DNA of 64,000 nucleotides from Chloroflexota bacterium (GTDB lineage: Bacteria > Chloroflexota > UBA11872), in contig JAPPKM010000071.1 of the NCBI GenBank assembly GCA_028874315.1, forward strand, positions 226-64,225. Direction: 5' to 3'. Below the pieces are notes generated by a model. The model saw nothing but the letters and a program-made list of their open reading frames with translations, was not told the DNA's origin and did no database searches. This document shows, in pieces, positions 10,783-43,916 of the stretch; positions within the stretch are counted from its first letter, which is position 1, and every line of letters starts with the position of its first letter. A program made the translations under genes and the position numbers.

Positions 10783-10801
10783 GCCGAGAGGAAGCGCCGG
10801 C

Positions 10802-11530: not shown

Positions 11531-11621
11531 ACGGACCGCCCTTTCGGTGACCACGGCGACATCAGCGGATTTACGGCGCGACAGTCGGCCGAGGACGAAG
11601 CCATCAACCGACTTTGCGGTT

Positions 11622-11858
11622 CTAGCTGCCTTGGCCGGCTTCCTTGGCCGCCTTGGCTTGATCGAGGCCCGAGCGGCGCGCTTCGTTGTCCTTCTCGTGG
11701 TCCGTCGCACCCACGCAGCCACGTCCACAGCGTCCCGAGGGCTTGAACTCGAAGGAATCGCTGTCGGCGCAGGCGCTCAGCCCAATCAGGGCTGGGGCGG
11801 CCATTAGCGCACCGAGTACGGCGCGTCGGCCTAGGACTCGAGGAGCATGGTTGAGCAT
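11622..11858 (-). CDS. Possible small TAT-signal lipoprotein
   Basis: 78-aa ORF with 'GRRAVLGALMAAPALIGLSAC' (RR motif plus lipobox). No other support. Confidence 0.35.
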   Translation of the reverse strand: MLNHAPRVLGRRAVLGALMAAPALIGLSACADSDSFEFKPSGRCGRGCVGATDHEKDNEARRSGLDQAKAAKEAGQGS

Positions 11859-11942
11859 GATCCCGGCTCACTGATGCCCTAATCGGGCACGAGCATAACC
11901 CAGACGGCCACATTGGCCGAAGCTGGTAAGACCCGGGACCAG

Positions 11943-26333: not shown

Positions 26334-26407
26334 GCCCCCGTAGCTCAGTGGACCAGAGCGACGGCCTTCTAAGCCGTGGGTCGCAGGTTCGAATCCTGCC
26401 GGGGGTG
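26334..26407 (+). tRNA. tRNA-Arg (anticodon TCT)
   Basis: Cloverleaf read by eye. Acceptor GCCCCCG/CGGGGGT (G1-U72 pair), D-arm GCTCAGTGGA..GAGC, anticodon stem ACGGC/GCCGT with loop CTTCTAA, T-arm GCAGG-TTCGAAT-CCTGC. CCA is not encoded. Confidence 0.85.
26366..26405 (+). repeat. attL core: tRNA-Arg 3' half (40 bp), identical to 52967..53006
   Basis: cttctaagccgtgggtcgcaggttcgaatcctgccggggg occurs at both positions. Five of the next six bases also match. Confidence 0.9.
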
Positions 26408-26609
26408 CCGCCACCTTGAGGCGCAGCCCGACCCGAACCTGTTAGCGGACGTGTCGGCCGAGGTCACCGGCCGCGCCCCCAGGGTGGATTCCATGCGAAG
26501 TGACCTACGGCCTGTATCGCGCCTCGACCCGACGGTGCCCGGACACGCACCGGACCTGCAGCGGACAGACGCTCGACCGCTCGAGCTCGCGGTCCCCATT
26601 CTCGGGCCC

Positions 26610-27569
26610 ATGCACATGGCCCAGGCGCCCCTCCCCAGCCCGCCGCTGGTCGATCTGGCGGAGTCGTACCTGCTGCATCTGCAGGCTTCGCGCCGCAGCG
26701 CCGGCACCATCGTCATGTACACGCGCATCCTGGGCCGGTTCGAGCGGTTCCTGGCCGCGTATCACGGCTCCGCGCCGAGCGCCGACGCGCTCACCCGCGA
26801 GGCCGCGCGGCGCTATCTGGTGCACCTGCAACAGCAGCCGCGCTACGTCGACATGCCGGACCGCCGCGGCGGGCGCCTGGCCCCCGCCACCCTCAACCAG
26901 CACGCGCGGGCGCTACGCGCGTTCGCCCGCTGGCTCTGGGACGAGGGCTTCACGGCCGAGCACCGGCTGGATCGGCTGCGCATGCCCAAGGTGCCGCTGA
27001 GCGACATCGAGCCGCTGACGCCGGCCGAGGTGGAACGGCTGCTGGCGGTCTTCGACCCGCGCAAGGCCTACGACCGGCGCACGGCGGCGATGGTGGGCCT
27101 GCTGGTGGACACCGGCATGCGGACGGGTGAACTCGCCGCCCTGCGCACCGCCGAAGTGAATCTCCACATCGGCGAGCTGCGCGTGGTGGGCAAGGGCGAG
27201 AAGGCGCGCGTGGTGGTGGCCGGACGGCGGGCGCTGAGCCTGCTGCGGCGCTACCTGCATCACCGCCCGCCCGGTCTGGGCCAGGCCAGCGACCGGCTGT
27301 TCGTGACGACGTCGGGCCGGGCGCTGGACCCGAACCAGATCGGGCACATCGTGCGGCGCCTGCGGCGGCGCAGCGGCATCCCGCGGCTCTACGCGCATTT
27401 GCTGCGGCACACCTTCGCGGTGCACTTCCTGCGCAACGGCGGCAACCCGCTGACGCTGCAACGGCTGCTGGGGCATGCGTCGCTCGCAACCACCAATCGC
27501 TACGTGACGCTGGCCACCGGCGACCTGGTGGCGGCCCATCGCCAGAGCAGTCCCCTCGACAATCTGTAG
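26610..27569 (+). CDS. Tyrosine recombinase / phage-type integrase
   Basis: ORF 26376..27569 starts inside the tRNA, so an internal start is more likely (ATG 26610/26616, or 26493). Catalytic blocks 'TGMRTGELAAL', 'AHLLRHTFA' and 'LLGHASLATTNRY'. Confidence 0.85.
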   Translation: MHMAQAPLPSPPLVDLAESYLLHLQASRRSAGTIVMYTRILGRFERFLAAYHGSAPSADALTREAARRYLVHLQQQPRYVDMPDRRGGRLAPATLNQHARALRAFARWLWDEGFTAEHRLDRLRMPKVPLSDIEPLTPAEVERLLAVFDPRKAYDRRTAAMVGLLVDTGMRTGELAALRTAEVNLHIGELRVVGKGEKARVVVAGRRALSLLRRYLHHRPPGLGQASDRLFVTTSGRALDPNQIGHIVRRLRRRSGIPRLYAHLLRHTFAVHFLRNGGNPLTLQRLLGHASLATTNRYVTLATGDLVAAHRQSSPLDNL

Positions 27570-28513: not shown

Positions 28514-29419
28514 GTGCACGCCCAGCGCCCCCTTACCCGCCAACACTCGGTCCTGCGGATGCTCTATCTCCATCGGTATCTTGCGGTCGACCAGATCGCC
28601 ACCCTCGTCTTTGCCACCGCCAGCCGCCGCGCCTGCCAGGCGTGCTGCACCACCCTCCATCGCAAGGGCTTCGTTCACCGCTTCGAACTCGCTCGAGGTG
28701 GCTTAGGTGGAGGTCGATCCAGTTACGTCTATGCGTTAGCCCCTGCAGGCGCCCAGGTCCTGGCCCAGGCTGACAACATCCCTGTCGTGGACATCCCCGT
28801 CGATCCCGATGCTCCCACCGCTCAGTCGGTCTTCGTCCATCACCAGCTCGCCGCCAATCGCTGTCTCGTCGCCGTCACCCGCGCTATACGGCAGCGTCCG
28901 CGTATTCGACTCTGTCAGTGGATCTCCGATCCCCACAGTCGGCTGCGCTACCGGCCCGACGGCGCCCGCTCCTGGCGCAGCGTCCATCCCGACGTGATCG
29001 CCATGCTGCGGGATGCGGACTTCGACCACTGGACCTTCCTTGAGATCGACCGCGGCACGCAGCCGCTGGCCCGCTATGTCGCGAAGATCCGCCGCTATGC
29101 GCGCTTCCAGCGCTCCAAGGCCTGGATGTCGCACTACCCGGTGTTCCCGGCCCTGCGGGTGGTGAGCGTGTCGGCGCGGCGGGCGGCAGGCATGGCCGAG
29201 TTGGCGGCGGATGTGATCGACCAGGTCGACTACGACGTGTATTGGGCTCGGCGCCCCAGCGTGTACGTGGCGGCGACTGCCGAGCCTGAACTCCTGGCCG
29301 ACCCGTTCGGCGAGATCTGGCGACCGGCTGCCGGCCCCCGCGATGCCCGCCACGCCTGGCTCCACGAGGGGCCTTCGGCTCCGGCACCGATGGAATCGGC
29401 CGGAGCCGGCGGCACCTGA
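28514..29419 (+). CDS. Replication-relaxation family protein (mobile-element associated)
   Basis: N-terminal winged-helix-like 'LTRQHSVLRMLYLHRYLAVDQIATLVF...LHRKGFVHRF' and 'YVYALAPAGAQVL' match the pattern I associate with this family. Confidence 0.55.
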   Translation: MHAQRPLTRQHSVLRMLYLHRYLAVDQIATLVFATASRRACQACCTTLHRKGFVHRFELARGGLGGGRSSYVYALAPAGAQVLAQADNIPVVDIPVDPDAPTAQSVFVHHQLAANRCLVAVTRAIRQRPRIRLCQWISDPHSRLRYRPDGARSWRSVHPDVIAMLRDADFDHWTFLEIDRGTQPLARYVAKIRRYARFQRSKAWMSHYPVFPALRVVSVSARRAAGMAELAADVIDQVDYDVYWARRPSVYVAATAEPELLADPFGEIWRPAAGPRDARHAWLHEGPSAPAPMESAGAGGT

Positions 29420-30608: not shown

Positions 30609-33600
30609 ATGGCGAAGTTTCCGACTATCGTCGAGACGTACCTGGCCGACCTGCGACGGATTCGCGCCTCCGGTGGGGCGACGGCCGAGACGTCCAGCTA
30701 CACCCCGCTGGAGATGCTCCTCGATGCGGTAGGCGCCGGGCTCAGGCCCAAGGTGTATTGCGTTGGGCAGCTCAGAGACCAGGGGGCCGGGCATCCCGAC
30801 TTTGGGCTGTACGCGGCAACGCAGGTGCAACGCGGGGGAAAGCCCAGGGGCGATCAACTGCCCGAGCATGGCGTGGTTGAGGTGAAGCCGGCGGCGGACG
30901 ATGCGTGGCTGACCGCGGAGAGCGACCAGGTGACGCGCTACTGGAGCCGCTACCGGTTGGTGCTGGTGACGAACTTCCGCGACTTCCTGCTGGTGAGCGA
31001 GGACGCGAATGGGAATCCGGCGCGGCTGGAGAGTTTTCGGATGGCGGCGGACGCGGAGGATTTCGAGCGGCAGTTGGAGAAGCCGCGGGCGTTTGCTGGG
31101 CGGGTCGGCGTGGGGCTGGGGGAGTATCTGCGGCGGGTGCTGTCGCACCGGGCGCGTCTGGTGGAACCGCGCGATTTAGCCGAACTGCTGGCCTCCCATG
31201 CGCGGGACGCGTTGGCGCGGGTAGAGGCCGCCGAAGCCGAGACGGGGGCCGGCGCCGCGCCGTTGGGGGCGGTACGGGAGGCGCTGGAAGAGGCGCTGGG
31301 CGTGCAGTTCGAGGGCGAACGGGGTGCTCGGTTCTTCAGGTCGACGCTGGTGCAAACGCTGTTCTACGGCGTCTTTTCGGCGTGGGTGTTGTGGGCACGG
31401 CAGACGCCGCCGCCGAGGGGCGCGTTCAACTGGCGAGAGGCTGTGTGGCATCTGCGCGCGCCGGTGCTGCGGGCACTGTTTCAGCAGCTCTCGGATCCGG
31501 GGCGGCTGCAACCGCTGGGTCTGGTGGAGGTACTGGACTGGACGGCTGCCACATTGAACCGCGTGGATCGGGACGCCTTCTTTGCACGGTTCAGCGAGGG
31601 GCAGGCGGTCCAGTATTTCTACGAGCCGTTCCTGCAGGCGTTCGACCCGGCGCTGCGCAAGCAATTGGGTGTCTGGTACACGCCGCCTGAGATCGTGCGC
31701 TACATGGTGGCGCGGGTGGACCAGGCGCTGAAGGACGACCTGGGCATTGCCGAGGGTCTGGCCGCCGAGAACGTCTACGTGCTGGATCCCTGCTGCGGCA
31801 CGGGCGCGTACCTGGCGGAAACGCTACGCCGAATTGCCGACAACCTGCAAGATCAAGGGCTGGGCGCGCTGACCGGAGCGCGGGTCAAGGAAGCGGCGAC
31901 CGAGCGCGTGTTCGGGTTCGAGATCATGCCGGCGCCGTTCGTGGTGGCACACCTGCAAGTCGGGCTGACCATGCAGGACTTGGACTCGCCGCTGGCGGAG
32001 GACGGAGCGGAACGGGCGGGAATCTTCCTGACCAATGCGCTCACGGGATGGGAGCCGCAGCCACAAGAGCGGCTGCCGATCCCCGAGTTTGAGGAGGAGC
32101 GCGAGCGAGCGGACGAGGTCAAGCAAGACAAGCCAATCCTCGTGGTCCTGGGCAATCCGCCGTACAACGGCTTTGCCGGCATGGCGGTGGACGAGGAACG
32201 GGAACTGTCGGATGCCTATCGCACGACTCGGCGAGTGCGGCGGCCCGAGGGCCAGGGTTTGAATGACCTCTACGTGCGGTTCTTCCGCATGGCGGAACGG
32301 CGGATCGCCGAGCAGACCGAGCAGGGCGTGGTCTGCTTCATCTCGAACTACTCGTGGCTGGACAGCCTGTCCTGTCCGGGGATGCGGGAACGGTACCTCG
32401 AGGCCTTTGACGTCATCCGTATCGACAACCTGAACGGCGACAAGTACCGAACCGGCAAGGTGGCGCCCGACGGCTCGCCCGACCCCAGTATCTTCTCAAC
32501 GCCCGACGATCCGGTTGGAATCCAGGTCGGAACGGCCATCGCCACACTGGTACGTAAGACCGACCACGCGTCCGCGCCAAACATCGAGTTCCGCAACCTG
32601 TGGGGTCAGGCCAAGCTGGAGGCCCTTACGGAAACGGCGGAGGCTGTGCCGGGGGCGCTCTACGGGACGATGGAGCCGGTGCTCCCGCTGGGGCTGCCGT
32701 TTGCGCCGCTAGCCGTCAGCCCGGAATGGTTCGACTGGCCGGCGTTGCCAGACCTGCTTCCGACGTCGTTTCCAGGAGTCAAGACCAGCCGCGACGCGTT
32801 CCTGGTCGACACCGACCTCGACCGGTTACGCGAGCGTGTCAGCGACTATTTCGACCCGGACCTAAGTCATGCGGAGATCGCGCAGCGATATCCGAGCGTG
32901 ATGCGGAGTTCGCAACGGTTCAACGCCCCCACGGTCCGAGACACGTTGCTAAGGCGAGGCGGTCCCACGGAAAGCGGCTTCGTGCGCTACGCATACCGGC
33001 CTTTCGATACCCGGTGGCTGTATTGGGAGCGCGACACGAAACTACTCGACGAGAAGCGATCCGAATACGTGCCTCACGTATTCCCAGAAAACTTGTGGCT
33101 ATCTGCCGTTCCCCGACTCAGGCAGGACGCAACCGAACCGCAAGCCACCTTCACGCCAGACTTGGCATCGCTTCACCTCATCGAATGGGGCGTCAGCATG
33201 TTTCCCGCGTGGCTTCGCGAAGAATCGTTGGGTGCCGACCTGCCGAAGTGGCGTCGACCGAACCTGTCAGCCGCTGCCCGCCGCTACCTTGAGCACTTCA
33301 ACTCGACTGTCGAGGACCTCTTCCACCACGTACTGGCTGTACTGCACGACCCTGGTTATCGGGAAGCGAACGCAGGCGCGCTGCGCATGGCGTGGCCGCG
33401 AATTCCGTTGCCGTATTGGTCCGAACTGTCAGCCCGCAGCGGCGCAGGGGAAAACGACGAGTCGGCCAAGGTTGGAGAGGCTGCCGAGTCCCTGGCTGGC
33501 TCGGTGGCTCGCGGGCGAGAATTAGCTGCGCTGCTCGATCCTGAGACGCCAGTTCCCAGCGTCACCACCGGCCAGCTTCGCCCAGAGACCGCCACGATTG

Positions 33601-34001
33601 CCGTGCCGGCCACGACACACGAGCGCAACATGTTCGGCGATGACTTTGGACTTACGGCGGGCTGGGGGCACATGGGATCCGGTCAGGCGGTGATGCCGGG
33701 GAAGGGTCGCGCCGTGGAGCGAGCTTACTCGGAATTGGAACGCTCAGCTCTGGGCGACGCCGCGGACATCATGGGCGAGACGACGTATGACATTCACCTC
33801 AATGACAACGCTTACTGGCGAAATGTGCCCACGAACGTGTGGAACTACCGTCTGGGCGGGTACCAGGTGCAGAAGAAGTGGCTGTCTTATCGAGAGCGGC
33901 AGGTTATGGGGCGGGCGCTGAGGGTGGAAGAGGTGGGGTATTTCAGTGAGATGGCAAGGCGAATTGGATCGATACTGCTCGTGACGGACTCAAGGGCCTA
34001 G
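30609..34001 (+). CDS. Type IIG (MmeI-like) fused restriction endonuclease / N6-adenine DNA methyltransferase
   Basis: 1130 aa. N-terminal PD-(D/E)xK-like 'HPDFGLY…GVVEVKP'. Gamma-class MTase motif I 'VLDPCCGTGAYL' and motif IV 'VLGNPPYNG'. Long C-terminal region containing 'YRPFDTRWLYWE'. Confidence 0.8.
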   Translation: MAKFPTIVETYLADLRRIRASGGATAETSSYTPLEMLLDAVGAGLRPKVYCVGQLRDQGAGHPDFGLYAATQVQRGGKPRGDQLPEHGVVEVKPAADDAWLTAESDQVTRYWSRYRLVLVTNFRDFLLVSEDANGNPARLESFRMAADAEDFERQLEKPRAFAGRVGVGLGEYLRRVLSHRARLVEPRDLAELLASHARDALARVEAAEAETGAGAAPLGAVREALEEALGVQFEGERGARFFRSTLVQTLFYGVFSAWVLWARQTPPPRGAFNWREAVWHLRAPVLRALFQQLSDPGRLQPLGLVEVLDWTAATLNRVDRDAFFARFSEGQAVQYFYEPFLQAFDPALRKQLGVWYTPPEIVRYMVARVDQALKDDLGIAEGLAAENVYVLDPCCGTGAYLAETLRRIADNLQDQGLGALTGARVKEAATERVFGFEIMPAPFVVAHLQVGLTMQDLDSPLAEDGAERAGIFLTNALTGWEPQPQERLPIPEFEEERERADEVKQDKPILVVLGNPPYNGFAGMAVDEERELSDAYRTTRRVRRPEGQGLNDLYVRFFRMAERRIAEQTEQGVVCFISNYSWLDSLSCPGMRERYLEAFDVIRIDNLNGDKYRTGKVAPDGSPDPSIFSTPDDPVGIQVGTAIATLVRKTDHASAPNIEFRNLWGQAKLEALTETAEAVPGALYGTMEPVLPLGLPFAPLAVSPEWFDWPALPDLLPTSFPGVKTSRDAFLVDTDLDRLRERVSDYFDPDLSHAEIAQRYPSVMRSSQRFNAPTVRDTLLRRGGPTESGFVRYAYRPFDTRWLYWERDTKLLDEKRSEYVPHVFPENLWLSAVPRLRQDATEPQATFTPDLASLHLIEWGVSMFPAWLREESLGADLPKWRRPNLSAAARRYLEHFNSTVEDLFHHVLAVLHDPGYREANAGALRMAWPRIPLPYWSELSARSGAGENDESAKVGEAAESLAGSVARGRELAALLDPETPVPSVTTGQLRPETATIAVPATTHERNMFGDDFGLTAGWGHMGSGQAVMPGKGRAVERAYSELERSALGDAADIMGETTYDIHLNDNAYWRNVPTNVWNYRLGGYQVQKKWLSYRERQVMGRALRVEEVGYFSEMARRIGSILLVTDSRA

Positions 34002-35233
34002 TGAAACGACTTCGGAGCGTGGGAAGCGTCATCCGCGAGCACGCCGAAATATCGGTAACGCTGGTTGCTTCGGTCCTTCTGATTGTCGTTATCGTAATTT
34101 GGGTGAAGTCATCCGATGACTTCACTGCAGTTCGCGACTATGGCCTGTTGATCGCCACAATAGTTGCATTCCCGCTCGCATTCTGGCGCAGCAAGGTGGC
34201 GGAGCGCCAGGCTGATGCAGCACGTCGCCAAGTTGAGGCTGCCGAACAAGGTCTACAAAGTGAGCGCTTCCGTCAGGGTACCGAGATGCTTGGCCATGAA
34301 CTAAAGTCCGTGCGTCTTGGTGGCATCTACACTCTTGATCGGCTCGCCAGAGATTTTCCGGAGGAGTATCACATTCCCGTCATGCAGACATTGTGTGCAT
34401 TCGTTCGCCATCCGCCGACAGATCCCTCGCAGACACGGCCAAGCAGTGTTGTTGCACAACCGATGGTCGAAGGAGACGAATACGACGATACTCCGCTTCA
34501 TTTGGTTGAGGATATTCACGCCGTCCTTGAAGTGATTCGACTGCGTAGCCAACAGCGATTGGACATCGAGTCAACGAACAACTTCGAATTGAATCTTAGC
34601 GGGGCAGATCTTCGTCTATCAGATCTTCGAGGCGCCAGTTTATCCGGCGACGACTTGAGTGACTCTCGACTCTCTGGCTCGCTTATGATGGACGCTGATC
34701 TCTCCGGTGCTCACCTTCAACGTGCAGACTTGACCTCACCGAACAAGAGTAGACCCAGCAAAGCGACCAAAAGTGACATTCACGAAGGACGTATTCCAGC
34801 AACGACAAGGCTCGACAATGTGGACTTGACGGGCGCGCTGGCTTTGGGTGCGAAGATGCGTGGAGTAATTCTATCCGGCTCGGACCTAAGCGGTGCGAAT
34901 CTCCCGTTTGTGACTTTGGCTGATTCACTCCTCATGCACACAAACTTTTCCGATGCACATCTATCCGACGCAAACTTGAGCGGCGCGGAGTTGCATGGTG
35001 CGAATTTTGCTGAGGCAATGTTATCGGACGCAAACCTCTCAGGGACGGACTTCTCGGGTTCATGTCTGTTTGGACACCCCGTTACACCTCAGCGTCCGGC
35101 AATTGGCCTAACTCAGAAGCAATTGGACTCAGCTCGAGCGGATCCAGCCAATCCGCCACGGCTTGATGGGGTCGTAGACGCAGACACCGGCTGTCAACTG
35201 GTCTGGAACGGCAAAGTGCTTGACGATGGATGA
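34001..35233 (+). CDS. Membrane-anchored pentapeptide-repeat protein
   Basis: The GTG start overlaps the MTase TAG by 1 nt (TAGTG). Two N-terminal hydrophobic helices. Long run of A(D/N)LSx-type pentapeptide repeats (NLSGADLRLSDLRGASLSGDDLSDSRLSG…ANLSGAELHGANFAEAMLSDANLSGTDFSG). Confidence 0.8.
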   Translation: MKRLRSVGSVIREHAEISVTLVASVLLIVVIVIWVKSSDDFTAVRDYGLLIATIVAFPLAFWRSKVAERQADAARRQVEAAEQGLQSERFRQGTEMLGHELKSVRLGGIYTLDRLARDFPEEYHIPVMQTLCAFVRHPPTDPSQTRPSSVVAQPMVEGDEYDDTPLHLVEDIHAVLEVIRLRSQQRLDIESTNNFELNLSGADLRLSDLRGASLSGDDLSDSRLSGSLMMDADLSGAHLQRADLTSPNKSRPSKATKSDIHEGRIPATTRLDNVDLTGALALGAKMRGVILSGSDLSGANLPFVTLADSLLMHTNFSDAHLSDANLSGAELHGANFAEAMLSDANLSGTDFSGSCLFGHPVTPQRPAIGLTQKQLDSARADPANPPRLDGVVDADTGCQLVWNGKVLDDG

Positions 35234-35240
35234 TAAGTAG

Positions 35241-35429
35241 GCTTGCCGCTTGTGCGGGTACCAGGTGCTGAAGAAGTGGCTGTCGTATCGGCAGCGGAAG
35301 GTGCTTGGGCAGGCTTTGAAGGTGGATGAGGTGGGGTGTTTCAGTGAGGTGGCGAGGCGCAATGGGGCGATTCTGTTGCTGCCGCACCAGACTGACTCCG
35401 GCTTGAAGCGATGCAGAGATGTCGTTTAG
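35241..35429 (+). pseudogene. Orphan 3'-end fragment of a second Type IIG MTase paralogue
   Basis: Open fragment …CGYQVLKKWLSYRQRKVLGQALKVDEVGCFSEVARRNGAILL… aligns with the end of the 30609..34001 product (GGYQVQKKWLSYRERQVMGRALRVEEVGYFSEMARRIGSILL). DNA identity is roughly 80% by eye. Confidence 0.8.
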
Positions 35430-35458
35430 GGAAAATGCGCACGGGAAAGTAAGTCCTA

Positions 35459-37021
35459 TTGCAGCCAGCGAGAGCGAGCCTTCCTGATGGCAGGAGGCGA
35501 CCGAACATCACAGTCACAGGATCTGCGCACTTTCATGACGATCGGCGATCCGGCCATGAGTGCAACACTATCGGTCGAGGGTCCGGGAGGCTTAAGTGGC
35601 CCAACCGGAGAGTCTTTGAGGAGCCGCTGACCCTGCCCTACGAAGTATTCGGCATTTTCTACCGGTGTTCCGAAATTCATGGAGCCCATACCAGTTTGGA
35701 GGAAGCCGCTGATTGTTTCGCGCAAGCGACCCAACGCTATGGTGCTGACGTACCGGTACATCCCGTTACTCAGAAGTATATTCACTGGATTGTCGCTATC
35801 GATAAGAACGGCAACAAGAGAGATTTATCGAATTCCGAATTGACGAAAGCCGGCAAGCTTTGCCTGGACTGCAAGTCATTCGCGGCCAAGGTCCCTGGAA
35901 TTACAACATTTTCGCAGCTTGCGGGAATGTATTACGAAGCGTCAAGGCTGATACCAGTGACGCACATTAGCCTGAAAGGCATGTTTGACCGCCAAGCCAA
36001 GGTTCGTCACTTCTGGACTTCAGACGCAGGCAAGGGCCAGGCGTTGGCCTTCGCACAGCAGGCAGCGTTTACCCTAGAGCTAGCACTCAAGGCATATCTG
36101 GAAGTTCTGGGGAAACTGGCGTCAACAGATGCTGCGGACGTCCGGAAATGGCGAAGGCATGAGCTCGCTGAACTCTTCAAGCTACTCACCTACGATGAGA
36201 AAGAGCAGCTGGAAGAATGGTGGCACCAGTCGGACGCTAAGAGAACACACTTTCACCGGAGATTCCAAGACTTCCTTTCGGAGAACAACAGGCTCTACTT
36301 GAAATGGCGGTACGTCAACGACCTTGAATCCGCCGACCTGTCAATCGACATACCGATGCTGTTGAGCGCTGCTGACTTTCTGTTGTACGCCGCCCGCCAG
36401 GCATTCAGGAAAACCTCACCCACCAATCTCAAAGTCACGACGACAGTGTATCCGCACTCCGACAGGGACAACAGAAGCTCGGCTCCTCGCTACGCACCGA
36501 CACTAGTAGAGGGTCGCGTTCGCGCTGTGAACATACCCAACGGATATGACCCTTTCAGCATAGTTGAGCTTGTGATCGACTCTGACCACCATGACGACGA
36601 AGTGATTGCCCAGTTCTACAAGCGCAGTGTTGAGAATTACTTTGGCCTTGAAGGCAGAAAGGTCGCTTTATTCGGCAACATCAGAGAAGATCGGCCGCAT
36701 CTGTTGGCCCACCCGCGTCACCTGGACGAACTCGAGAGAGAATGTGTGTACACCGTTGAGCATTGCACGTTGAAGGGATCGATCCATGACGTTAGGACTG
36801 TCCATTCCGCACATGGTAAACCTGGGAAACTAGACCTTTCTCTCTGGGACGAAACCTATTTCACCCAAGTCGAATGCTTCTTTGTGACGGACAAGGAGCG
36901 TGACCTGCTCAGGGAAGTCAAACCGGGTGATACAATTCTGATAAGTGGTTGGGTCACTGTGCTGAATGGGCGACCAGTGGTGATAGTTCGGCCTACCCAT
37001 ATCGAAAAGGTTGTCGAGTAG
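35459..37021 (+). CDS. Hypothetical protein with central HEPN-like domain and two C-terminal OB-fold-like repeats
   Basis: Rx4H motif 'RKWRRHELAELF' lies in an all-helical region (…FTLELALKAYLEVLGKL…). The C-terminus has two beta-rich units, ending '…VKPGDTILISGWVTVLNGRPVVIVRPTHIEKV'. The start is uncertain: TTG at 35459, and the first in-frame ATG is far downstream. Confidence 0.5.
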   Translation: MQPARASLPDGRRRPNITVTGSAHFHDDRRSGHECNTIGRGSGRLKWPNRRVFEEPLTLPYEVFGIFYRCSEIHGAHTSLEEAADCFAQATQRYGADVPVHPVTQKYIHWIVAIDKNGNKRDLSNSELTKAGKLCLDCKSFAAKVPGITTFSQLAGMYYEASRLIPVTHISLKGMFDRQAKVRHFWTSDAGKGQALAFAQQAAFTLELALKAYLEVLGKLASTDAADVRKWRRHELAELFKLLTYDEKEQLEEWWHQSDAKRTHFHRRFQDFLSENNRLYLKWRYVNDLESADLSIDIPMLLSAADFLLYAARQAFRKTSPTNLKVTTTVYPHSDRDNRSSAPRYAPTLVEGRVRAVNIPNGYDPFSIVELVIDSDHHDDEVIAQFYKRSVENYFGLEGRKVALFGNIREDRPHLLAHPRHLDELERECVYTVEHCTLKGSIHDVRTVHSAHGKPGKLDLSLWDETYFTQVECFFVTDKERDLLREVKPGDTILISGWVTVLNGRPVVIVRPTHIEKVVE

Positions 37022-37107
37022 GACGATGCTTGGAAGAGTTTTCCTCAGGAAATGCTCGGTTTCTTGATGACCGAATTGGCCTTTACGGAGAGAAAGTAGG
37101 ACAATTG

Positions 37108-38295
37108 ATGGCGCGTGAGCTTACGCTCTTCGACGACATTGTACGTACGGATCACCGGCACTCGAAGCGAGCGAGATCCGCCTTTGATTTTCTGAATACG
37201 TCGGCTTGGTCTGCCTGCCACAACATGCGCGACACGCTTGAGCAGTGGTTCGAGCAGTACCCGGTGATCTCCAAGAACGATCTTCGCTCACGCTTCCGGA
37301 AACGCGACGCTAACCACGAGTCCGCTTTCTTCGAGCTCTTTCTGCACGAAGTCTTCCGCCGTTTGGAACTCTCTCCCGAAGTGCATCCCGAATCGCCAAG
37401 TAGTCGCGGACGGCCTGATTTCGCAATCACGAGCGGTAGCGGCAGTCTGTACTACGTTGAAGCCAATGTTGTCGGGCTCAGGGGATTCATGGCCAAGGAC
37501 CCGCTCGAGGATGAGGTATTTGATGCCATAGACGATTTGGCTGTCGAGCGACCGACGAGAATCGCGCTGGATGCTCGAACTTGTGGGACTCTGTCCCAAT
37601 CTCCGCCAGTTCGTCGAATCAAGGCGAAGGTTCGGCAGTGGGTTGATCGGATCGACGAGGAATACAGAGTCCCGGGCAGGATTGAGGCGGAGCCAAGCAT
37701 CAGAATCTCTCACGACGAATGGAGTCTTAACTTAGCGGCATTTCATCGATTCGATCATGACTCGAAGAGGATGATCCATCTAGGTCCGAGTAAGGGCGGG
37801 GTGTTGAATGACGACGTTGCTCTACGCAAGAACGTACTAGCGAAAGCAAAGCAGCACCGAGACCTCGATCGGCCCCTGATTGTGGCAATGAACACACAGA
37901 GCGGCTTCCAGGATCGTGACGACGAGCTCTCGGCGCTGTTCGGCCAGGAAGCGGTGTCATGGCGCGAAGACGCACACGGCAACGTCGTCACGCTTCCGTA
38001 CGTAACGCGTCAGCCCGACGCAGTGTGGCGCAATCGCGGGGGGAGACGATATAGCCGGCTGCACGGTGTGCTGTTCTTTCGCGGCGCCCGGCCGTCGACC
38101 GCGCACAGCGTCACTTCCCATCTATATGTCAACCCATACATCCAGGCTGATGTTCCGCCTGAACTTCTGCAGCTGGGGAGCGCCCGTGTCCGGAGCAGAG
38201 AGATGCGATGGGAAGCGGGGATGCCTCTCGGCGACCTGCTGGACCTTCCTGAGGACTGGCCCGGTGAACGAACCCCAGGCTTCTCCGCTGGCTGA
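37108..38295 (+). CDS. Hypothetical protein, possible PD-(D/E)xK-like nuclease fold
   Basis: ORF 36949..38295. The ATG at 37108 is preceded by GAGAGAAAGTAGG. 'FFELFLHEVFRRL…GRPDFAIT…LYYVEANVV' resembles a restriction-endonuclease core, but no clear catalytic Lys is visible. Confidence 0.45.
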   Translation: MARELTLFDDIVRTDHRHSKRARSAFDFLNTSAWSACHNMRDTLEQWFEQYPVISKNDLRSRFRKRDANHESAFFELFLHEVFRRLELSPEVHPESPSSRGRPDFAITSGSGSLYYVEANVVGLRGFMAKDPLEDEVFDAIDDLAVERPTRIALDARTCGTLSQSPPVRRIKAKVRQWVDRIDEEYRVPGRIEAEPSIRISHDEWSLNLAAFHRFDHDSKRMIHLGPSKGGVLNDDVALRKNVLAKAKQHRDLDRPLIVAMNTQSGFQDRDDELSALFGQEAVSWREDAHGNVVTLPYVTRQPDAVWRNRGGRRYSRLHGVLFFRGARPSTAHSVTSHLYVNPYIQADVPPELLQLGSARVRSREMRWEAGMPLGDLLDLPEDWPGERTPGFSAG

Positions 38296-38649
38296 GGGTC
38301 TGACTTCCCACCCGTGCGCCGAGCTGAGCGCCATACTTAGGTCTCTCTTCTCTTTAGTCGGACTTGTGCTCCTGCGCACGTCCGGGCTCGTCGTCTGTCG
38401 CAATGACGGCGTCGCCTCGCTCAGGGAGTTCGTAGTGCTTGGCGTCGGCATTCCACGCCGTCGCGGATGTCTCGTAGGCCAGCACTTAAGAACCCGAGGA
38501 TCGTCCTCACCGACTTCGTAGTCAGGCCTGGACACGTTCGCGCGCCATGGGGAACTGCTTGCCCCGCGGAAAGTCGGGCGGGTCTGAGATCTCCCGTCGC
38601 CCGAACGGATGCGGACGGCGCGGGACTGGCCTGCCACAAGCGGATCAGG

Positions 38650-38790
38650 ATGGTCCTAACTGTGCGTAGTCTGGGCAATTGCCAGATGGTGACGAGGTGG
38701 CTGTATTACCGGGAACGGACGGTCTTCAGCCGGGAATCGAAGGTGGCAGAGGTAGGGCGTTTGAGTTAGGTGGCACGGAGGTTTTGGGGC
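38650..38790 (+). pseudogene. Second, more decayed remnant of a Type IIG MTase 3' end
   Basis: …VRSLGNCQMVTRWLYYRERTVFSRESKVAEVGRLS* aligns with …YRLGGYQVQKKWLSYRERQVMGRALRVEEVGYFS. DNA identity is roughly 70% by eye. The left limit is approximate. Confidence 0.6.
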
Positions 38791-39251
38791 GAACCCGGTG
38801 GTCAGGAAGTAGCACTCTCTGTCAAATGACAGGATCGCACACTCCGGGGAGTTCGGGCGTTTCGGACAAGTGCTGCGAGGAGGAGTCACCATCCGTGTCC
38901 TATGAGTACATGCGTGCCTCTCCTGATTTGGCGAACTGCGGAAGGCTGCCGAAATCGGCGCGGTCGCCGGCCATCAGTCGTCAGTGGTTGAAGAGCAGTT
39001 GGATGCCATGGGAGCCACAGGCGCAGTGAAACGAGCTAAGGCGACGACTATTGGTCCGCAGCCCCCAGGAGGCGAGCGAATCCAGCACATCGCGCGCTTG
39101 CGGCTCACTTGGACATTGGAGTATCTTCCCGCAGCATTTTGGTGCGCGAGAATTAGCGTCGCCTTGGGTGGTGCCGCTCGGAAGGGCTTCAGATTCGCGT
39201 TCGCGATCCACAGCTTGCAGCCGAATCTCAAAGATCGGCATCAAACGTCGA

Positions 39252-39785
39252 GTGACGTTCACAGACGCTGAAGAATCCCTGGGCGACTTCCTCGAACGCT
39301 ACCCACCGCGCCCGTATCGCCGCAGAGGCGCAGCCAACTATCCCGCAGCCGAACTGGAGGCCGTCACGGATGCTGAAGGTCTCCTGTACCTGAACGAGGT
39401 ACCGGCGCAGATGCCACAGGGGAGCCCACGGCGATCCCACGAGGATGACGGCCAGAACTGTCATATATGGGTAATCGACGAGCGCGGACGACCGTGCATA
39501 TCGCAGGCACCGCTGCCGCGACTAGGCCCTGAGAAACTGCATCACACAAATCTGACGGGAGGAGGCGAGGCGTCTATCGGCGGCGAAATCTGGTTCGGTT
39601 CGCTGCCCTTCGTATACCTGTCCGGCTCATCAGGTCGATATCCGCCTACGGGACGAGATCACCTAGAGTGCGCCGAACGCCTCTTTCGTGCTGTAGGCTT
39701 TGATGTCCACTCGCTGGGCTGGGACTCAGAGACCGATCAGCCTCTGCGGGTCTGGCTCGGAAAGTCATCGGCGGTGGGGGAATGA
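39252..39785 (+). CDS. Hypothetical protein (candidate toxin/effector partner of the Xre-COG2856 gene)
   Basis: ORF 39051..39785. Only the distal ~178 codons look protein-like (…HIWVIDERGRPCIS…HHTNLTGGGEASIGGEIWF…LSGSSGRYPP…). The GTG 39252 start is tentative. The stop overlaps the next ATG (ATGA). Confidence 0.45.
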   Translation: MTFTDAEESLGDFLERYPPRPYRRRGAANYPAAELEAVTDAEGLLYLNEVPAQMPQGSPRRSHEDDGQNCHIWVIDERGRPCISQAPLPRLGPEKLHHTNLTGGGEASIGGEIWFGSLPFVYLSGSSGRYPPTGRDHLECAERLFRAVGFDVHSLGWDSETDQPLRVWLGKSSAVGE

Positions 39786-41140
39786 GCGAAGCCACCACGG
39801 CGCTATATGTGCGGGGCAAGTACCAACTCGCCCGGTACGAGCCAGGAAGTTCGGCGACGGGCCGACGCCTCACAGAGCACGAGGTTCTTGAAGCATACGG
39901 CCGCGATGTACTTGCTGACATTGATGACCGTTTGTCCGCCGTGCTGCTGGCGCGCGCCGGCGCAATCGAACATGCGATTCGCGAACAGCGCGATGCGTTG
40001 GGCATGACACGCTCTGAACTCGCACGCGCCGCGAATGTCGATCATGAAGTCATTGATCTAGCAGAGACTGACGCCGAGCAGCTCGAGCTGAGGGAGCTTG
40101 AGCACCTGGCGTTCGTACTTGGTCTTGATCCCGCCAAGCTGAGCATTGACGAGCGCGCGGGTTCGGATCCTGATCTGGGCGTCAGGCTGCGCGTCCTGGA
40201 GGTCGAGCGCGTCGCGACTCCAACCAATGCTCGGCTAAATGCCCGGACCGTGTTGCGATTCTCAGAAGCCGCTTCGATTATCAGATCGCATCTTCTTCTT
40301 CAGCATTGGCTGGGAAAGCAAAACGAAGCGGAGGGATTTGAGACTTCATCCAACTACGGCCCTCCGGCCTGGCGAGCGGGATATGCGCTTGCCAGAAAAG
40401 CACGAGAACTCTTGGGTATTGGCATCGAACCCATTGACTCGATGCGGGAGCTCGTCGAAGGCCGTCTTGGCATTCCGATCATTCAGGTTGCACTCCAACC
40501 GGAGATTGCGGGCGCCACAATCTCGTCGCGGAGTCAGCGAGGCATCGTCCTCAACATTGCCGGACGGTACCAGAACGTGTGGATCCGCCGTACGACGCTC
40601 GCGCATGAACTGGCACATGTCCTCTTTGATCCCGAGGAGCAACTCGAAAGTGTCCGCGTCGACAGCTATGAGCAGATTGTGCGCGACGCCGAGCACGACA
40701 GCCAGTTGCCGGACTACGTGGAGCAACGAGCCAATGCCTTTGCAGTCGAATTTCTGGCCCCGAGGGAAGCTGTGAAGCAGTTCGTTCCGAGCCCCGCCCA
40801 AGTGAGCGCCGCAAGTGTTGCGCAGGTCATGTCGGCATTCGGCGTCGGAAAGGCCGCGGCTCGCTTTCACGTGGGGAATGCGTGGTGGGGACAGGCCGAG
40901 CTTCCTGATGAATCCACAATTCAGGCGTCACCCAGAGGAGACCAGAAGGCGGCCGAGGATTACACGTTGGACTTTTTCCGGCCGAGAGCGACGCCCGAGC
41001 AGCGGCGGGGACGCTTCGCTTTCCTCGTGGGAGAGGCCGTTGACACAGGACTAATCACGCGCGATACGGCAGCTCAATACCTTGCTTGCTCCGAAGACGA
41101 TCTGAATGCTGCAGTGCCGTTTTTGCTCGGTAGAGCATAG
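39782..41140 (+). CDS. Xre-type HTH fused to ImmA/IrrE (COG2856, M78-like) zinc metallopeptidase domain
   Basis: HTH 'LGMTRSELARAANVDHEVIDLAE'. HExxH 'LAHELAHVLFD' followed by 'EQRANAFAVEFLAP'. Confidence 0.8.
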   Translation: MSEATTALYVRGKYQLARYEPGSSATGRRLTEHEVLEAYGRDVLADIDDRLSAVLLARAGAIEHAIREQRDALGMTRSELARAANVDHEVIDLAETDAEQLELRELEHLAFVLGLDPAKLSIDERAGSDPDLGVRLRVLEVERVATPTNARLNARTVLRFSEAASIIRSHLLLQHWLGKQNEAEGFETSSNYGPPAWRAGYALARKARELLGIGIEPIDSMRELVEGRLGIPIIQVALQPEIAGATISSRSQRGIVLNIAGRYQNVWIRRTTLAHELAHVLFDPEEQLESVRVDSYEQIVRDAEHDSQLPDYVEQRANAFAVEFLAPREAVKQFVPSPAQVSAASVAQVMSAFGVGKAAARFHVGNAWWGQAELPDESTIQASPRGDQKAAEDYTLDFFRPRATPEQRRGRFAFLVGEAVDTGLITRDTAAQYLACSEDDLNAAVPFLLGRA

Positions 41141-41189: not shown

Positions 41190-42230
41190 ATGACAATACC
41201 GAGAAACATTCCATGGCGGTCGACCGGAACCACTTTGGGCGCCGGAGGTCAAGGTCAGGTTCATCTCGTTGTTGACGAAAGACAGCCGGAGAGCGAAGAG
41301 TACGCTCTCAAGGTACTACGGAACACTTCTTCACAACAGGCGAGGGAGCGCTTCCGCCGGGAAATAGAGGTCGTGAAGAGATTGAATTCGAACTTTGTGG
41401 TCAAGGTGATTGATCACTCTCAAGAAGAGGACGAATTTCAGTATTTTGTCATGGAGTATTTTAGCGGGGCAAGAACTCTATCGAGCATCATTTTCGCAGA
41501 AGGCAGTCCATTTTATCGCGACGTTAGCAGATGCCTTGACATGTTTGAGCAGATACTGGCAGGCATTAGGGCGTGCGAAGCGTCTCGTCCGCAAGTTGTT
41601 CACCGCGACATCAAGCCGGACAATATCCTTGTCCTTCAAGACGGTTCCATTCGACTAATCGACTTTGGAGTCTGCCAGATCGATGATGGGGAAATGATGA
41701 CCCTTGTGGATGAGAACGTCGGAGCTCGAAATTACACTTCCCCGGAGTGTGAAGCTGGAAGTGACGATTTCATAGGAATCCACTCCGATATCTACTCTGC
41801 TGCCAAGATTCTATGGGCTGCCATTACCTCAAGGCAGGCATTTGCTCGGGAGGACCCAGTCTTTACAAATAGGTCGATGGAAGCGATGCTCCCTCAGATT
41901 CCGGAGACTTGGCACCTTACCCATATCTTTGAAAAGACGATTCGTCGTAACCCCGCAGACAGATTCCAGAGTGTCGGTGAGGCCCTTGAGCTGGTTCGAC
42001 ACGTGCGACATTTGGTTCAGTCAGGGATTCCACCACTCAAAATACTAAGTCGCTATTGTCCTTCGTGCGGATGGCCGGCTGTGAGCGAGTTTCCCCTGTC
42101 ACACGAAGTATTCGGCAATCCCAACCCGCCTGGCGTGGCATCTTTGATGTGCAGCTTGTGTGGGTTTGGCTTTGTTAGGAATATGGAGGTATGGCGCGAA
42201 AGCCTGGAGCGTCGTGAATCGCTCAGCTAG
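41190..42230 (+). CDS. Ser/Thr protein kinase with C-terminal CxxC…CxxC zinc-ribbon-like tail
   Basis: 'LGAGGQGQV', 'YALKVL', 'VVHRDIKPDNILV', 'LIDFGVC', 'YTSPE'. Tail 'CPSCGWP…CSLCGF'. Confidence 0.8.
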   Translation: MTIPRNIPWRSTGTTLGAGGQGQVHLVVDERQPESEEYALKVLRNTSSQQARERFRREIEVVKRLNSNFVVKVIDHSQEEDEFQYFVMEYFSGARTLSSIIFAEGSPFYRDVSRCLDMFEQILAGIRACEASRPQVVHRDIKPDNILVLQDGSIRLIDFGVCQIDDGEMMTLVDENVGARNYTSPECEAGSDDFIGIHSDIYSAAKILWAAITSRQAFAREDPVFTNRSMEAMLPQIPETWHLTHIFEKTIRRNPADRFQSVGEALELVRHVRHLVQSGIPPLKILSRYCPSCGWPAVSEFPLSHEVFGNPNPPGVASLMCSLCGFGFVRNMEVWRESLERRESLS

Positions 42231-42638: not shown

Positions 42639-43916
42639 TCAACGCAAATGGACAGATTGAAGGTCTTTGAAAAGTGACCAAAACGACTTGTCGTACCAAC
42701 GAAAATGCCCTTTATTTTGGGGATCACAATACCAAAGGGAATGTGACCTACCTTCATATCCGCTTGGATTTCTCGGCATTCTGACCGATATCTGTGCATA
42801 GGCGACTGTATCAATGCTCCTCCGAGAAGAGTTTCCGGGACTATCATTACTCGCTAGCTTCGGCCGGGCAACGCTCAACTGACCGCTAGCCAGGGACCAA
42901 TTGAGTGTTCCACCTTTATCCGATAATTTAGTGTTCGGAGCGTTTTGAAGTAACTGATCGTGGAGTAAGTCAATGATTGGTGCTAGTGAGCGTTGAGCTA
43001 CATCATACAACTCTAAGCGGTGTTCTGCTTCGATTCGGGCAGCTGTACGTCTTCGGGACTCTTCGGCTTCTTGCTGAACGACTTGTGCGTTGATTTCCTG
43101 GAGCAAGGACCCGACACCGGAAGTAGGCTGTACACTCCGCGGCCATCGCGCCAGCAAGTTTCGCGGTCGCGGTCGAGCTTCAGGGGATTTGTACAGACAT
43201 TCGTCAATCAACGAGCGAAGTTGCGTTGGAATCCCGGGAATTGAATCTGGGAGTTCGTTCAGATGCTGACGACGATAATCGTGCTCGGCCGGTCCGACGA
43301 ATGGACGTCGTCCTGCAAGTAGCTCATAGGCAACGACGCCTAGCGCGTACACATCCGTTGAACTACTGGCTCGATCTCCATTCCACTGCTCCGGTGCCGC
43401 ATAGGCAGACGTCTTCGCATACTTCTTCGTATCAGGGGCTGTCGTTGCATCGGCGTACCTTGATATTCCGAAGTCTGCAAGGCACCAGCGCCCGTCATGA
43501 AACAGCACATTTTCTGGCTTGATGTCCCGATGGACAACTCGGTCCTCAATCTCCACCAGTGCGGTTGTGATATCGACGAGAATCGTGACTGCCTCAACCG
43601 GCTCGATCCGGCCATCGGACGCGATGAGATGGTCGCGGAGTGATTGCTCCGCTTCAGGCATTACAAGGAGCCAGCAGTCCGAAGTCTCGCCCTTATCTAG
43701 GATTGGTATGACGTTTGGGACCCCGTCGAGATCTTCAAAGAGTAGCTCCCGTTCTGCGCCGGGTGCCTTTGGGATAAACTTCACGACACCTGCCATGTCT
43801 TCGTCAGAACGAGCGGCGTAAACGAGTCCAAAGCCGCCGGAGCCTATCTGATGCTCGATGCGCCAGTTACGGTCTAAGCAGACTTCCTCTCCGATGTAGT
43901 CTGAAACTGGGTGCAT
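42639..43916 (-). CDS. Ser/Thr protein kinase with unknown C-terminal domain (possibly frameshifted near its end)
   Basis: 'IGSGGFGLVY', 'VVHRDIKPENVLF', 'LADFGISR', 'YAAPE'. A protein-like ORF in another frame continues from about 42700 to 42481. Confidence 0.8.
   Translation of the reverse strand: MHPVSDYIGEEVCLDRNWRIEHQIGSGGFGLVYAARSDEDMAGVVKFIPKAPGAERELLFEDLDGVPNVIPILDKGETSDCWLLVMPEAEQSLRDHLIASDGRIEPVEAVTILVDITTALVEIEDRVVHRDIKPENVLFHDGRWCLADFGISRYADATTAPDTKKYAKTSAYAAPEQWNGDRASSSTDVYALGVVAYELLAGRRPFVGPAEHDYRRQHLNELPDSIPGIPTQLRSLIDECLYKSPEARPRPRNLLARWPRSVQPTSGVGSLLQEINAQVVQQEAEESRRRTAARIEAEHRLELYDVAQRSLAPIIDLLHDQLLQNAPNTKLSDKGGTLNWSLASGQLSVARPKLASNDSPGNSSRRSIDTVAYAQISVRMPRNPSGYEGRSHSLWYCDPQNKGHFRWYDKSFWSLFKDLQSVHLR

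Follow-up and report, generated by a model that had tools for sequence, protein, structure and literature searches.

Two independent single-gene modules in a cargo hotspot behind a Type IIG restriction gene of a Chloroflexota bacterium

In HEPN-T domains of the AF0298 type and in AbiV, the histidine of the Rx4-6H motif has been lost and the basic residue kept; a second strongly conserved histidine lies N-terminal to the motif, and an acidic residue is found in the preceding helix (PMC3710099). HEPN-T genes are also known to cluster with restriction-modification (R-M) operons (PMC3710099). DARNA, or PD-T7-3, is a HEPN tRNA anticodon nuclease whose activity is triggered by single-stranded DNA (ssDNA) via a separate C-terminal domain (10.64898/2026.02.22.705581). 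PD-T7-1 and PD-T7-5, each encoded by one gene, are anti-phage proteins of E. coli that contain a PD-(D/E)xK or RmuC-like domain. PrrC and RloC are HEPN-class effectors encoded within or beside R-M loci, and their regulatory domain is an ABC-type ATPase. Here we compare these systems with two adjacent genes, which we call gene 1 and gene 2, in a stretch of 64,000 nt (the window) from a Chloroflexota bacterium (contig JAPPKM010000071.1 of assembly GCA_028874315.1, positions 226 to 64,225, forward strand). The reading that we favour, and to which we give somewhat better than even standing, is that the two genes are independent cargo modules in a hotspot at the 3' end of a Type IIG gene, with gene 1 encoding an abortive-infection-type effector and gene 2 a stand-alone nuclease.

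The open reading frames (ORFs) of the two genes run on the + strand at 35459-37021 and 36949/37108-38295. The genes themselves and the predicted parts of gene 1 are as follows:

35388-35632, + strand: leader conserved with gene 1, from the orthologous-locus alignment
35633-37021, + strand: gene 1, 462 codons
35633-35983, + strand: gene 1 N-terminal alpha/beta domain, residues 1-117, with invariant C12, H16, H19 and C28
35984-36427, + strand: gene 1 helical domain, putatively a divergent HEPN-T (PF05168-like) domain, residues 118-265; all-helical in the model over residues 131-261
36491-37009, + strand: gene 1 tandem OB folds as predicted from the strand pattern of the model, OB1 at residues 287-363 and OB2 at residues 373-459
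37108-38295, + strand: gene 2, 395 residues

Predicted architecture and start of gene 1

The AlphaFold2 model of the gene 1 protein, with a predicted local distance difference test score (pLDDT) of 83, consists of an N-terminal alpha/beta domain, an all-helical domain, a variable linker and two beta-barrels. The N-terminal domain has no match in Pfam, NCBIfam or the PDB sequences, and the C-H-H-C pattern formed by its invariant residues may be a metal site. The barrels are more readily placed. In a Foldseek search of the PDB, they match Teb1 AB with an E value of 4.8e-5, as well as HIN-200 (p202 HIN2), Thermus SSB, Pot1 and RPA, and the matches to single OB folds superpose with a root-mean-square deviation (rmsd) of 3.7-4.6 Å. 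The Pfam family PF01336 (tRNA_anti-codon) is detected over residues 437-510 of the long ORF at an E value of 7e-5, scoring 23 bits against a cut-off of 27, and PF12869 is recorded on four gene 1 homologues. With Foldseek E values down to 5e-5 and the PF01336 match beside them, the tandem OB folds that had been proposed from the DNA alone are confirmed at the level of the model. The best of the fold matches, to Teb1/RPA70 DBD-A/B, Thermus SSB and HIN-200, likewise place OB barrels consecutively. These proteins differ from gene 1 in that they share 8-14% identity with it, orient their barrels differently (rmsd 12-17 Å over both) and contain no HEPN domain.

The helical domain is marked by a set of invariant residues comprising E149, K153 and E157 on a long helix, H176 within a 'THxLxxL' motif, and the W225-R226-Y227 triplet. 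E149, H176 and R226 are invariant in 38 members of the gene 1 family and also across distant stand-alone relatives at about 20% identity. PF05168 is the only Pfam family matched by more than one gene 1 member (5 of 17, best E value 0.005, below the cut-off). A search with a profile of the helical domain against 1.84 billion representatives returned about 20 clusters of the family itself together with stand-alone proteins, at E values of 1e-6 to 1e-3. The stand-alone relatives are 150-215 residues long and share with gene 1 the invariant residues G, E, K, H and R; four of ten match PF05168, and one of these, P0255, lies above the curated cut-off (35 bits versus 22). Aligned with hhalign, the gene 1 helical domain and P0255 match over 110 columns with a probability of 96.9% and an E value of 1.9e-10. 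P0255 is a singleton, no homologues having been found in the search for them, and its genomic context is uninformative. An hhalign comparison of the gene 1 domain with a short classical HEPN protein from locus L034 gave no alignment. Profiles built from gene 1, from the helical and the N-terminal domain separately, and from a widened HEPN-like alignment returned chance-level matches only when searched against the PDB sequences.

We accept the HEPN-T assignment because PF05168 recurs below threshold in the family, because the profile link to P0255 connects the domain to a member above threshold, and because the E/H/R pattern is the one published for this type. The best reading of these transitive profiles and motifs is therefore that the gene 1 helical domain belongs to the HEPN superfamily and to its alternative-histidine HEPN-T type. 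The original prediction had also named a HEPN domain, on the basis of an Rx4H motif. The superfamily is supported by the PF05168 matches, the P0255 link and the E/H/R residues; the cited motif is not conserved. That motif, RKWRRH, has its arginine replaced by lysine or glutamine in most members of the gene 1 family, and we rejected it as the catalytic motif on this ground.

When set beside the AF0298/AbiV type of HEPN-T, gene 1 is similar in being all-helical, in having an acidic residue (E149) in the long helix, a histidine (H176) before the motif and a basic residue (R226) without a following histidine, and in clustering with R-M operons. The HEPN-T architectures described so far do not include its fusion to an N-terminal domain and a pair of OB folds, and there is no MNT partner among the annotated gene 1 neighbours, many of the neighbours not having been scanned. 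Like gene 1, DARNA is a single polypeptide that combines a HEPN domain with a separate C-terminal nucleic-acid-binding module (putative in gene 1), and it is single-gene cargo of defence loci. DARNA differs in that its motif is canonical (R117x4H122), its HEPN domain is N-terminal and its Pds5-like sensor is all-helical, whereas gene 1 has an alternative-histidine HEPN-T domain in the middle of the protein and a beta-rich tandem OB region; no homology between the two was detected, as judged from the lack of a PADLOC match. By analogy, DARNA is a plausible working model for gene 1.

PrrC and RloC resemble gene 1 in their position inside or next to R-M loci, for which the placement of a gene 1 homologue between hsdM and hsdS/hsdR in locus L013 may be compared; this arrangement recalls PrrC, which is encoded within a Type I R-M locus. 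In many other loci gene 1 is an immediate neighbour of a Type IIG gene. Unlike gene 1, PrrC and RloC are not known to have OB folds, and no sequence similarity between them and gene 1 was found. CoCoNuT Type IV restriction systems share with gene 1 the use of OB-type RNA-binding domains (CSD and SmpB-like) with HEPN effectors, in what is predicted to be RNA-targeting defence (PMC11090510). In CoCoNuT, however, the domains reside on separate proteins of an McrBC-derived operon, with GTPase and helicase components that are not present here (PMC11090510). In the searchable literature, OB and HEPN domains are combined in defence only in the multi-gene CoCoNuT systems.

Gene 1 is a genuine gene under purifying selection, with 97 homologues at E < 1e-100, a ratio of nonsynonymous to synonymous substitution rates (dN/dS) of 0.28-0.37 against five orthologues and no internal stops. 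Its start is hard to place because the family ATG reads CTG in this genome, which explains why the start had appeared unclear in the original prediction; three gene callers disagree on the length of the protein (354, 441 and 520 residues). The homologues are 462-479 residues long, and the methionine of 'MPYEVF' is the start in 16 of 16 other loci aligned. The corresponding codon is ATG in all six close loci aligned as DNA and CTG, at 35633, in the window, where a GAGGAG sequence (35618-35623) lies 9 nt before it. Initiation at any later in-frame codon would cost the protein its invariant C12, H16 and H19, so this allele is either CTG-initiated or recently disabled. We considered an assembly error as the cause of the CTG and rejected it, since leucine occupies the same position in an independently assembled contig, possibly from the same sample.

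Within the leader, which is 245 nt long, lies a small upstream ORF (uORF) of 24 codons at 35556-35630, MSATLSVEGPGGLSGPTGESLRSR. The uORF is retained in six of seven orthologous loci, with 20 or 24 codons, and ends 2 or 14 nt before the main start; in the window, its stop lies 2 nt before the CTG. Judging from this spacing, the uORF could couple translation to gene 1, which is relevant given the CTG start. The small ATG ORF that had been reported to overlap the 5' region of gene 1 is present at 35487-35630 (47 codons), and the peptides quoted in the original prediction are all found in the sequence. Covariation in the orthologous-locus alignment gave no support for an RNA structure in the leader, nor did the leader have an Rfam match. 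A scan for promoters and terminators found no convincing promoter and no terminator between the genes, both counts being at or below the shuffle expectation.

The nuclease-like core of gene 2

Gene 2 has 125 homologues and is likewise under purifying selection, with a dN/dS of 0.28-0.37 against three orthologues and no internal stops. Its model (pLDDT 88.5) shows helices (H) and strands (E) in the order H69-85, E89-92, E105-108, E114-122, H132-147 and E150-159. The invariant residues E76, P103-D104 and E118 lie on the elements of this nuclease core (approximately residues 69-160). A C-terminal alpha/beta domain with no assigned function follows and carries the invariant K246.

The PADLOC model for PD-T7-5 matches 45 of 48 members of the gene 2 family, with a best E value of 1.8e-10, and that for PD-T7-1 matches 10 of the 48; the window protein itself matches the PD-T7-5 model at an E value of 3e-4. 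The PD-T7-5 matches are limited to profile positions ~23-118 of 346, or ~60-95 residues of the nuclease core. The fold matches of gene 2 that carry names are weak and are mostly to PD-(D/E)xK nucleases (Exo5, Cas4, SfsA, Mrr and RecB), and a gene 2 profile searched against the PDB sequences gave chance-level matches only. Taken together, the alignments and the model support a PD-(D/E)xK-like layout for the N-terminal core, apart from its lysine, which is not conserved. The restriction-endonuclease-like core suggested in the original prediction is supported by the PD-T7-5 and PD-T7-1 model matches and by fold topology, with no significant structural match beside them.

Gene 2 shares with PD-T7-5 and PD-T7-1 a putative nuclease core, a single-gene organisation and a location in defence islands. 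Beyond the core, including the C-terminal domain with K246, the protein is either unrelated to PD-T7-5 or related beyond detection. Full membership of gene 2 in the PD-T7-5 family was rejected, as the match is confined to the core; the kinship is at the level of the domain. NCBIfam has no family for either gene 1 or gene 2, and no curated model names either family (PADLOC and NCBIfam for gene 1, NCBIfam for gene 2).

The gene 2 family extends to plasmids of Proteobacteria and Actinobacteria, with full-length relatives of ~28% identity, annotated 'hypothetical', on plasmids of Pseudomonas, Acinetobacter and Mycolicibacterium. One full-length relative with 27% identity lies on the A. baumannii plasmid pWM98-2 (NZ_CP116388.1 96114-97274, locus L036). 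It takes the final place in an operon of CBASS-cyclase, AAA ATPase and DUF6602 genes, the first gene of which is annotated as a CBASS oligonucleotide cyclase, and it adjoins an ImmA/IrrE and HTH pair. In some lineages, the gene 2 nuclease family may be an effector within a larger system.

Two modules behind a Type IIG gene

Gene 1 loci were collected in a scan of species-representative genomes, which gave 22, all from Chloroflexota, Dehalococcoidia or SAR202, and gene 2 neighbourhoods were examined in 10 look-ups. In the window, gene 2 begins at an ATG at 37108, and the spacer from the gene 1 stop at 37021 is 86 nt, as originally described. Gene 2 adjoins gene 1 in 2 of the 22 gene 1 loci (L003 and the transposon-broken L014), and gene 1 adjoins gene 2 in one of the 10 gene 2 look-ups (L031). 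These three loci and the window are all orthologous, with the same methylase (75-82% amino acid identity) and the same spacer, and so represent about one evolutionary event. Within the same hotspot, gene 1 occurs without gene 2 in L001, L002 and L004, and a different gene of 357 residues accompanies gene 2 in L023/L024. Outside the hotspot, none of the 16 loci with gene 1 and none of the 8 contexts with gene 2 has both genes. Nucleotide homology falls into two blocks, a gene 1 module at 35387-37017 and a gene 2 module at 37107-38589, and the module boundaries therefore fall at the gene 1 stop and the gene 2 start. The gene 1 family was found in Chloroflexota only, unlike the gene 2 family. We conclude that gene 1 and gene 2 behave as independent single-gene modules. 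The original prediction had presented them as a two-gene cassette in which gene 2 was the partner of gene 1, and this part of it is not supported: the genes are linked in four orthologous loci only, and each is found alone in the same hotspot and elsewhere.

In L011 and L012, gene 1 has unrelated Type IIG genes immediately up- or downstream, methylase fragments lie beside distant gene 1 homologues in L021 and L022, and SIR2-STAND (L005) and TPR-PIN (L006) genes lie upstream of gene 1. Integrase, transposase and conjugative-element genes are found at other gene 1 loci, and the elements in which gene 1 resides in L005, L009, L010 and L012 also have a serine recombinase and a coupling protein, along with a relaxase-like gene. 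Locus L013 (1469-20216) has a gene 1 homologue of 42% identity within a Type I R-M locus, with hsdM on one side and hsdS/hsdR on the other, and the same interval contains a GHKL-ATPase gene and a transposase. In 6 of the 10 look-ups, gene 2 adjoins or lies within a Type IIG or Type I R-M locus, and one further context is a SIR2/pentapeptide island. R-M, defence and mobile-element neighbours thus recur for both genes, as raw neighbour counts, and both genes behave as autonomous defence-island cargo. Homologues of both had been expected to be linked to each other and to defence islands; the mutual linkage is not borne out, whereas the loci examined repeatedly place each gene beside R-M or mobile-element genes.

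The other features of the locus are listed here, strands being given where recorded:

26334-26409: tRNA-Arg(TCT), start of the integrated element that holds the 33.5-49 kb region
26376-27569: tyrosine integrase, directly after the tRNA-Arg
28514-29419: relaxase-like gene (Replic_Relax)
30609-34001, + strand: Type IIG R-M enzyme, intact (matched in Pfam by N6_Mtase, Eco57I and Type_ISP_C; PADLOC REase_MTase_IIG, E 9e-86)
34001-35233, + strand: pentapeptide-repeat protein, 410 residues (Pfam Pentapeptide, 7e-29)
35246-35387, + strand: left bracket, a displaced repeat of the methylase 3' end (33848-33989) at 80% identity
38667-38808, + strand: right bracket, an apparently older repeat of the methylase 3' end that has decayed further, to 61% identity
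39051-39785, + strand: ORF without annotation, 244 residues, overlapping the start of the HTH and M78 peptidase gene
39782-41140, + strand: HTH and M78 peptidase gene (PADLOC RmrA models, E 1.6e-12; capP)
41190-42230, + strand: PD-T4-6-like Ser/Thr kinase (PD-T4-6, a single-gene defence kinase, and mad6, E ~3e-44)
42639-43916, - strand: second PD-T4-6-like Ser/Thr kinase, convergent with the first

The region at 33.5-49 kb has a G+C content of 52-60%, versus ~65% elsewhere in the window, and gene 1 and gene 2 have a G+C fraction of 0.51-0.56, versus ~0.65-0.70 in the methylase and backbone, in agreement with the AT shift reported originally. The methylase and all of the defence cargo likely belong to one integrative mobilisable element that starts at the tRNA-Arg. 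The Type IIG enzyme consists of nuclease, methylase and Type-ISP-like specificity domains, and the 3' end of its gene anchors the variable cargo region. Together with the RmrA-like gene and the PD-T4-6-like kinases, this enzyme gives the window the defence-island context that had been proposed for it. The two-gene layout at 39051-41140 is reminiscent of RosmerTA, a defence pair made up of a toxin and an antitoxin. A 36-nt inverted repeat (41594-41629 / 43504-43539) derives from a kinase motif common to both kinase genes.

The window contains the final 142 nt of the methylase gene (33848-33989) three times, as direct copies with identities of 100%, 80% and 61%; the two displaced copies, at 35246-35387 and 38667-38808, are the flanking methylase remnants noted in the original prediction. 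The copies separate layers of cargo, namely the pentapeptide gene, the gene 1 and gene 2 segment, and the remainder. The 80% copy corresponds to the live methylase 3' end of related genomes, as the window at 35243-38718 is colinear with L003 at 9611-13037 (blastn), and the window therefore looks like an L003-type locus that was later given a new methylase 3' end and the pentapeptide gene. The same right-hand bracket follows gene 2 in L031 (7627-7758), and a further methylase-end copy was noted in L004 (9528-9794). From these alignments, the pentapeptide gene looks like the most recent insertion, placed between the live methylase end and the 80% copy, and the 61% copy would mark an earlier event of the same kind. 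The gradient of decay fits successive insertions at the methylase 3' end, with older ends moved downstream; Campbell-type integration and homology-facilitated illegitimate recombination are both candidate routes.

The hotspot behind the methylase carries differing cargo in sister genomes. The pentapeptide gene, whose GTG start overlaps the methylase stop codon and whose protein has a hydrophobic N terminus, is not present at the orthologous loci L003, L014 and L031. A homologue of its protein (30% identity) adjoins a gene 2 homologue in the SIR2 island of L032, and a 27-residue piece of its C terminus follows gene 1 in L004; the gene may be recurrent defence-island cargo. In L014 (6792-10950), an inserted segment of ~2.6 kb with several ORFs divides the gene 1 orthologue into an N-terminal part of 154 codons (6969-7430) and a remainder (10001-10947), and gene 2 is reduced to its first 62 codons. 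The hotspot decays as well as grows, as L014 shows.

Proposed functions and competing explanations

Gene 1 is most likely a self-contained effector of the abortive-infection type. The OB pair would bind single-stranded nucleic acid, its ligand being, we infer, an infection signal (phage ssDNA, for example) or else the RNA substrate, and the HEPN-T domain would cleave RNA, probably as a dimer, through an 'alternative' active site composed of E149, H176 and R226. The N-terminal C-H-H-C domain might regulate or oligomerise the protein. By analogy with PrrC, gene 1 could possibly be coupled to the adjacent R-M enzyme. The window copy of gene 1 would be either weakly expressed from the CTG, perhaps coupled to the uORF, or recently silenced. 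As for gene 2, it probably encodes a DNA nuclease that acts alone, in which a core of the PD-T7-5/PD-T7-1 type is joined to a C-terminal recognition domain of its own. A bolder version, which we put forward tentatively and regard as rather doubtful at present, holds that gene 1 represents a new class of single-protein sensor-effector, in which RPA-like OB folds read phage ssDNA (or capture tRNA) and trigger an alternative-histidine HEPN RNase, convergent with DARNA. Such a sensor-effector may also couple to a neighbouring Type IIG or Type I enzyme, as in PrrC.

Several observations weigh against independent cargo modules with these functions. The invariant R226 has no histidine 4-6 residues downstream, so that the canonical Rx4-6H motif is missing from gene 1. 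Gene 1 itself has no HEPN match at a curated threshold, the window copy has no PF05168 match, and all 50 matches listed for the whole protein in Foldseek are to OB folds, with none to the helical domain. None of the PADLOC models is matched by a member of the gene 1 family, and no gene 1 relative was found on the viral contigs searched. About half of the gene 1 loci have mobile-element or unannotated neighbours only. For gene 2, the lysine at the +2 position of E118 (the ExK motif) is not conserved in the family, and Foldseek returned no significant match, with best E values of 0.19 in the PDB and 0.011 in BFVD. Lastly, no terminator is predicted in the 86-nt spacer, so that co-transcription is possible in the four paired loci and some cooperation there is conceivable.

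This last point bears on the idea that the genes form a true two-gene system, which arrived and works as a unit in which one protein senses and the other executes. The two genes are direct neighbours on one strand, the window, L003, L014 and L031 all retain the pair with its spacer, and in the window and L031 the methylase-end copies bracket the pair as a single segment. We nonetheless consider such a system improbable, as the four co-occurrences are all orthologous and behind the same methylase, as gene 1 is without gene 2 in three loci of the same hotspot and gene 2 without gene 1 in L023/L024, as no pairing occurs outside it, and as the plasmid-borne range of gene 2 in Proteobacteria and Actinobacteria differs from the Chloroflexota-only range of gene 1. 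Gene 1 might alternatively be a nucleic-acid-binding accessory of mobile elements, SSB-like or regulatory, in which the HEPN-T domain is a non-catalytic module for binding or dimerisation. The four elements with transfer genes described above, the prominence of ssDNA binders among the top fold matches and the missing canonical motif would all agree with this, and HEPN domains without catalytic residues have been listed as probably inactive (PMC3710099). The invariance of E, K, H and R both in the family and in stand-alone relatives at ~20% identity, however, means that catalysis fits better than a scaffold. Gene 1 also lies repeatedly beside R-M and other defence genes, not transfer genes, and holds a cargo position in the hotspot, and we therefore judge the accessory role unlikely.

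A further alternative concerns the window alone. Gene 1 could be dead in this genome through loss of its start codon, leaving only gene 2 of consequence here, and the CTG in place of the ATG found in all aligned orthologues, together with the cost of the next in-frame starts in invariant residues, speaks for this. Set against it are the intact frame of 462 codons with a dN/dS of ~0.3 versus five orthologues, the good Shine-Dalgarno sequence 9 nt upstream of the CTG and the conserved uORF, which, ending 2 nt before the CTG, would permit coupled initiation. We regard silencing as possible but on balance doubtful, and it would bear on the expression state alone and not on the identity of the gene.

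On the favoured reading of two independent modules, gene 1 is a lineage-restricted new architecture of known parts and a plausible single-gene candidate for abortive infection, and gene 2, by its alignments, is a new branch that shares a known nuclease core. These findings do not overturn current ideas, and the candidates come from a phylum with almost no experimental phage biology. Gene 2 widens the PD-T7-5/PD-T7-1 core to a broad unnamed family that reaches from Chloroflexota to Pseudomonas and Acinetobacter plasmids. The locus as a whole is a legible record of defence cargo stacking behind a restriction gene, in which older methylase 3' ends appear to have been moved downstream. If gene 1 is active, it would add to the known defence architectures one that joins HEPN-T to tandem OB folds; and if the proposed function is true, the poorly understood 'alternative-histidine' HEPN-T domains found near R-M operons can be immune RNases with a built-in sensor.

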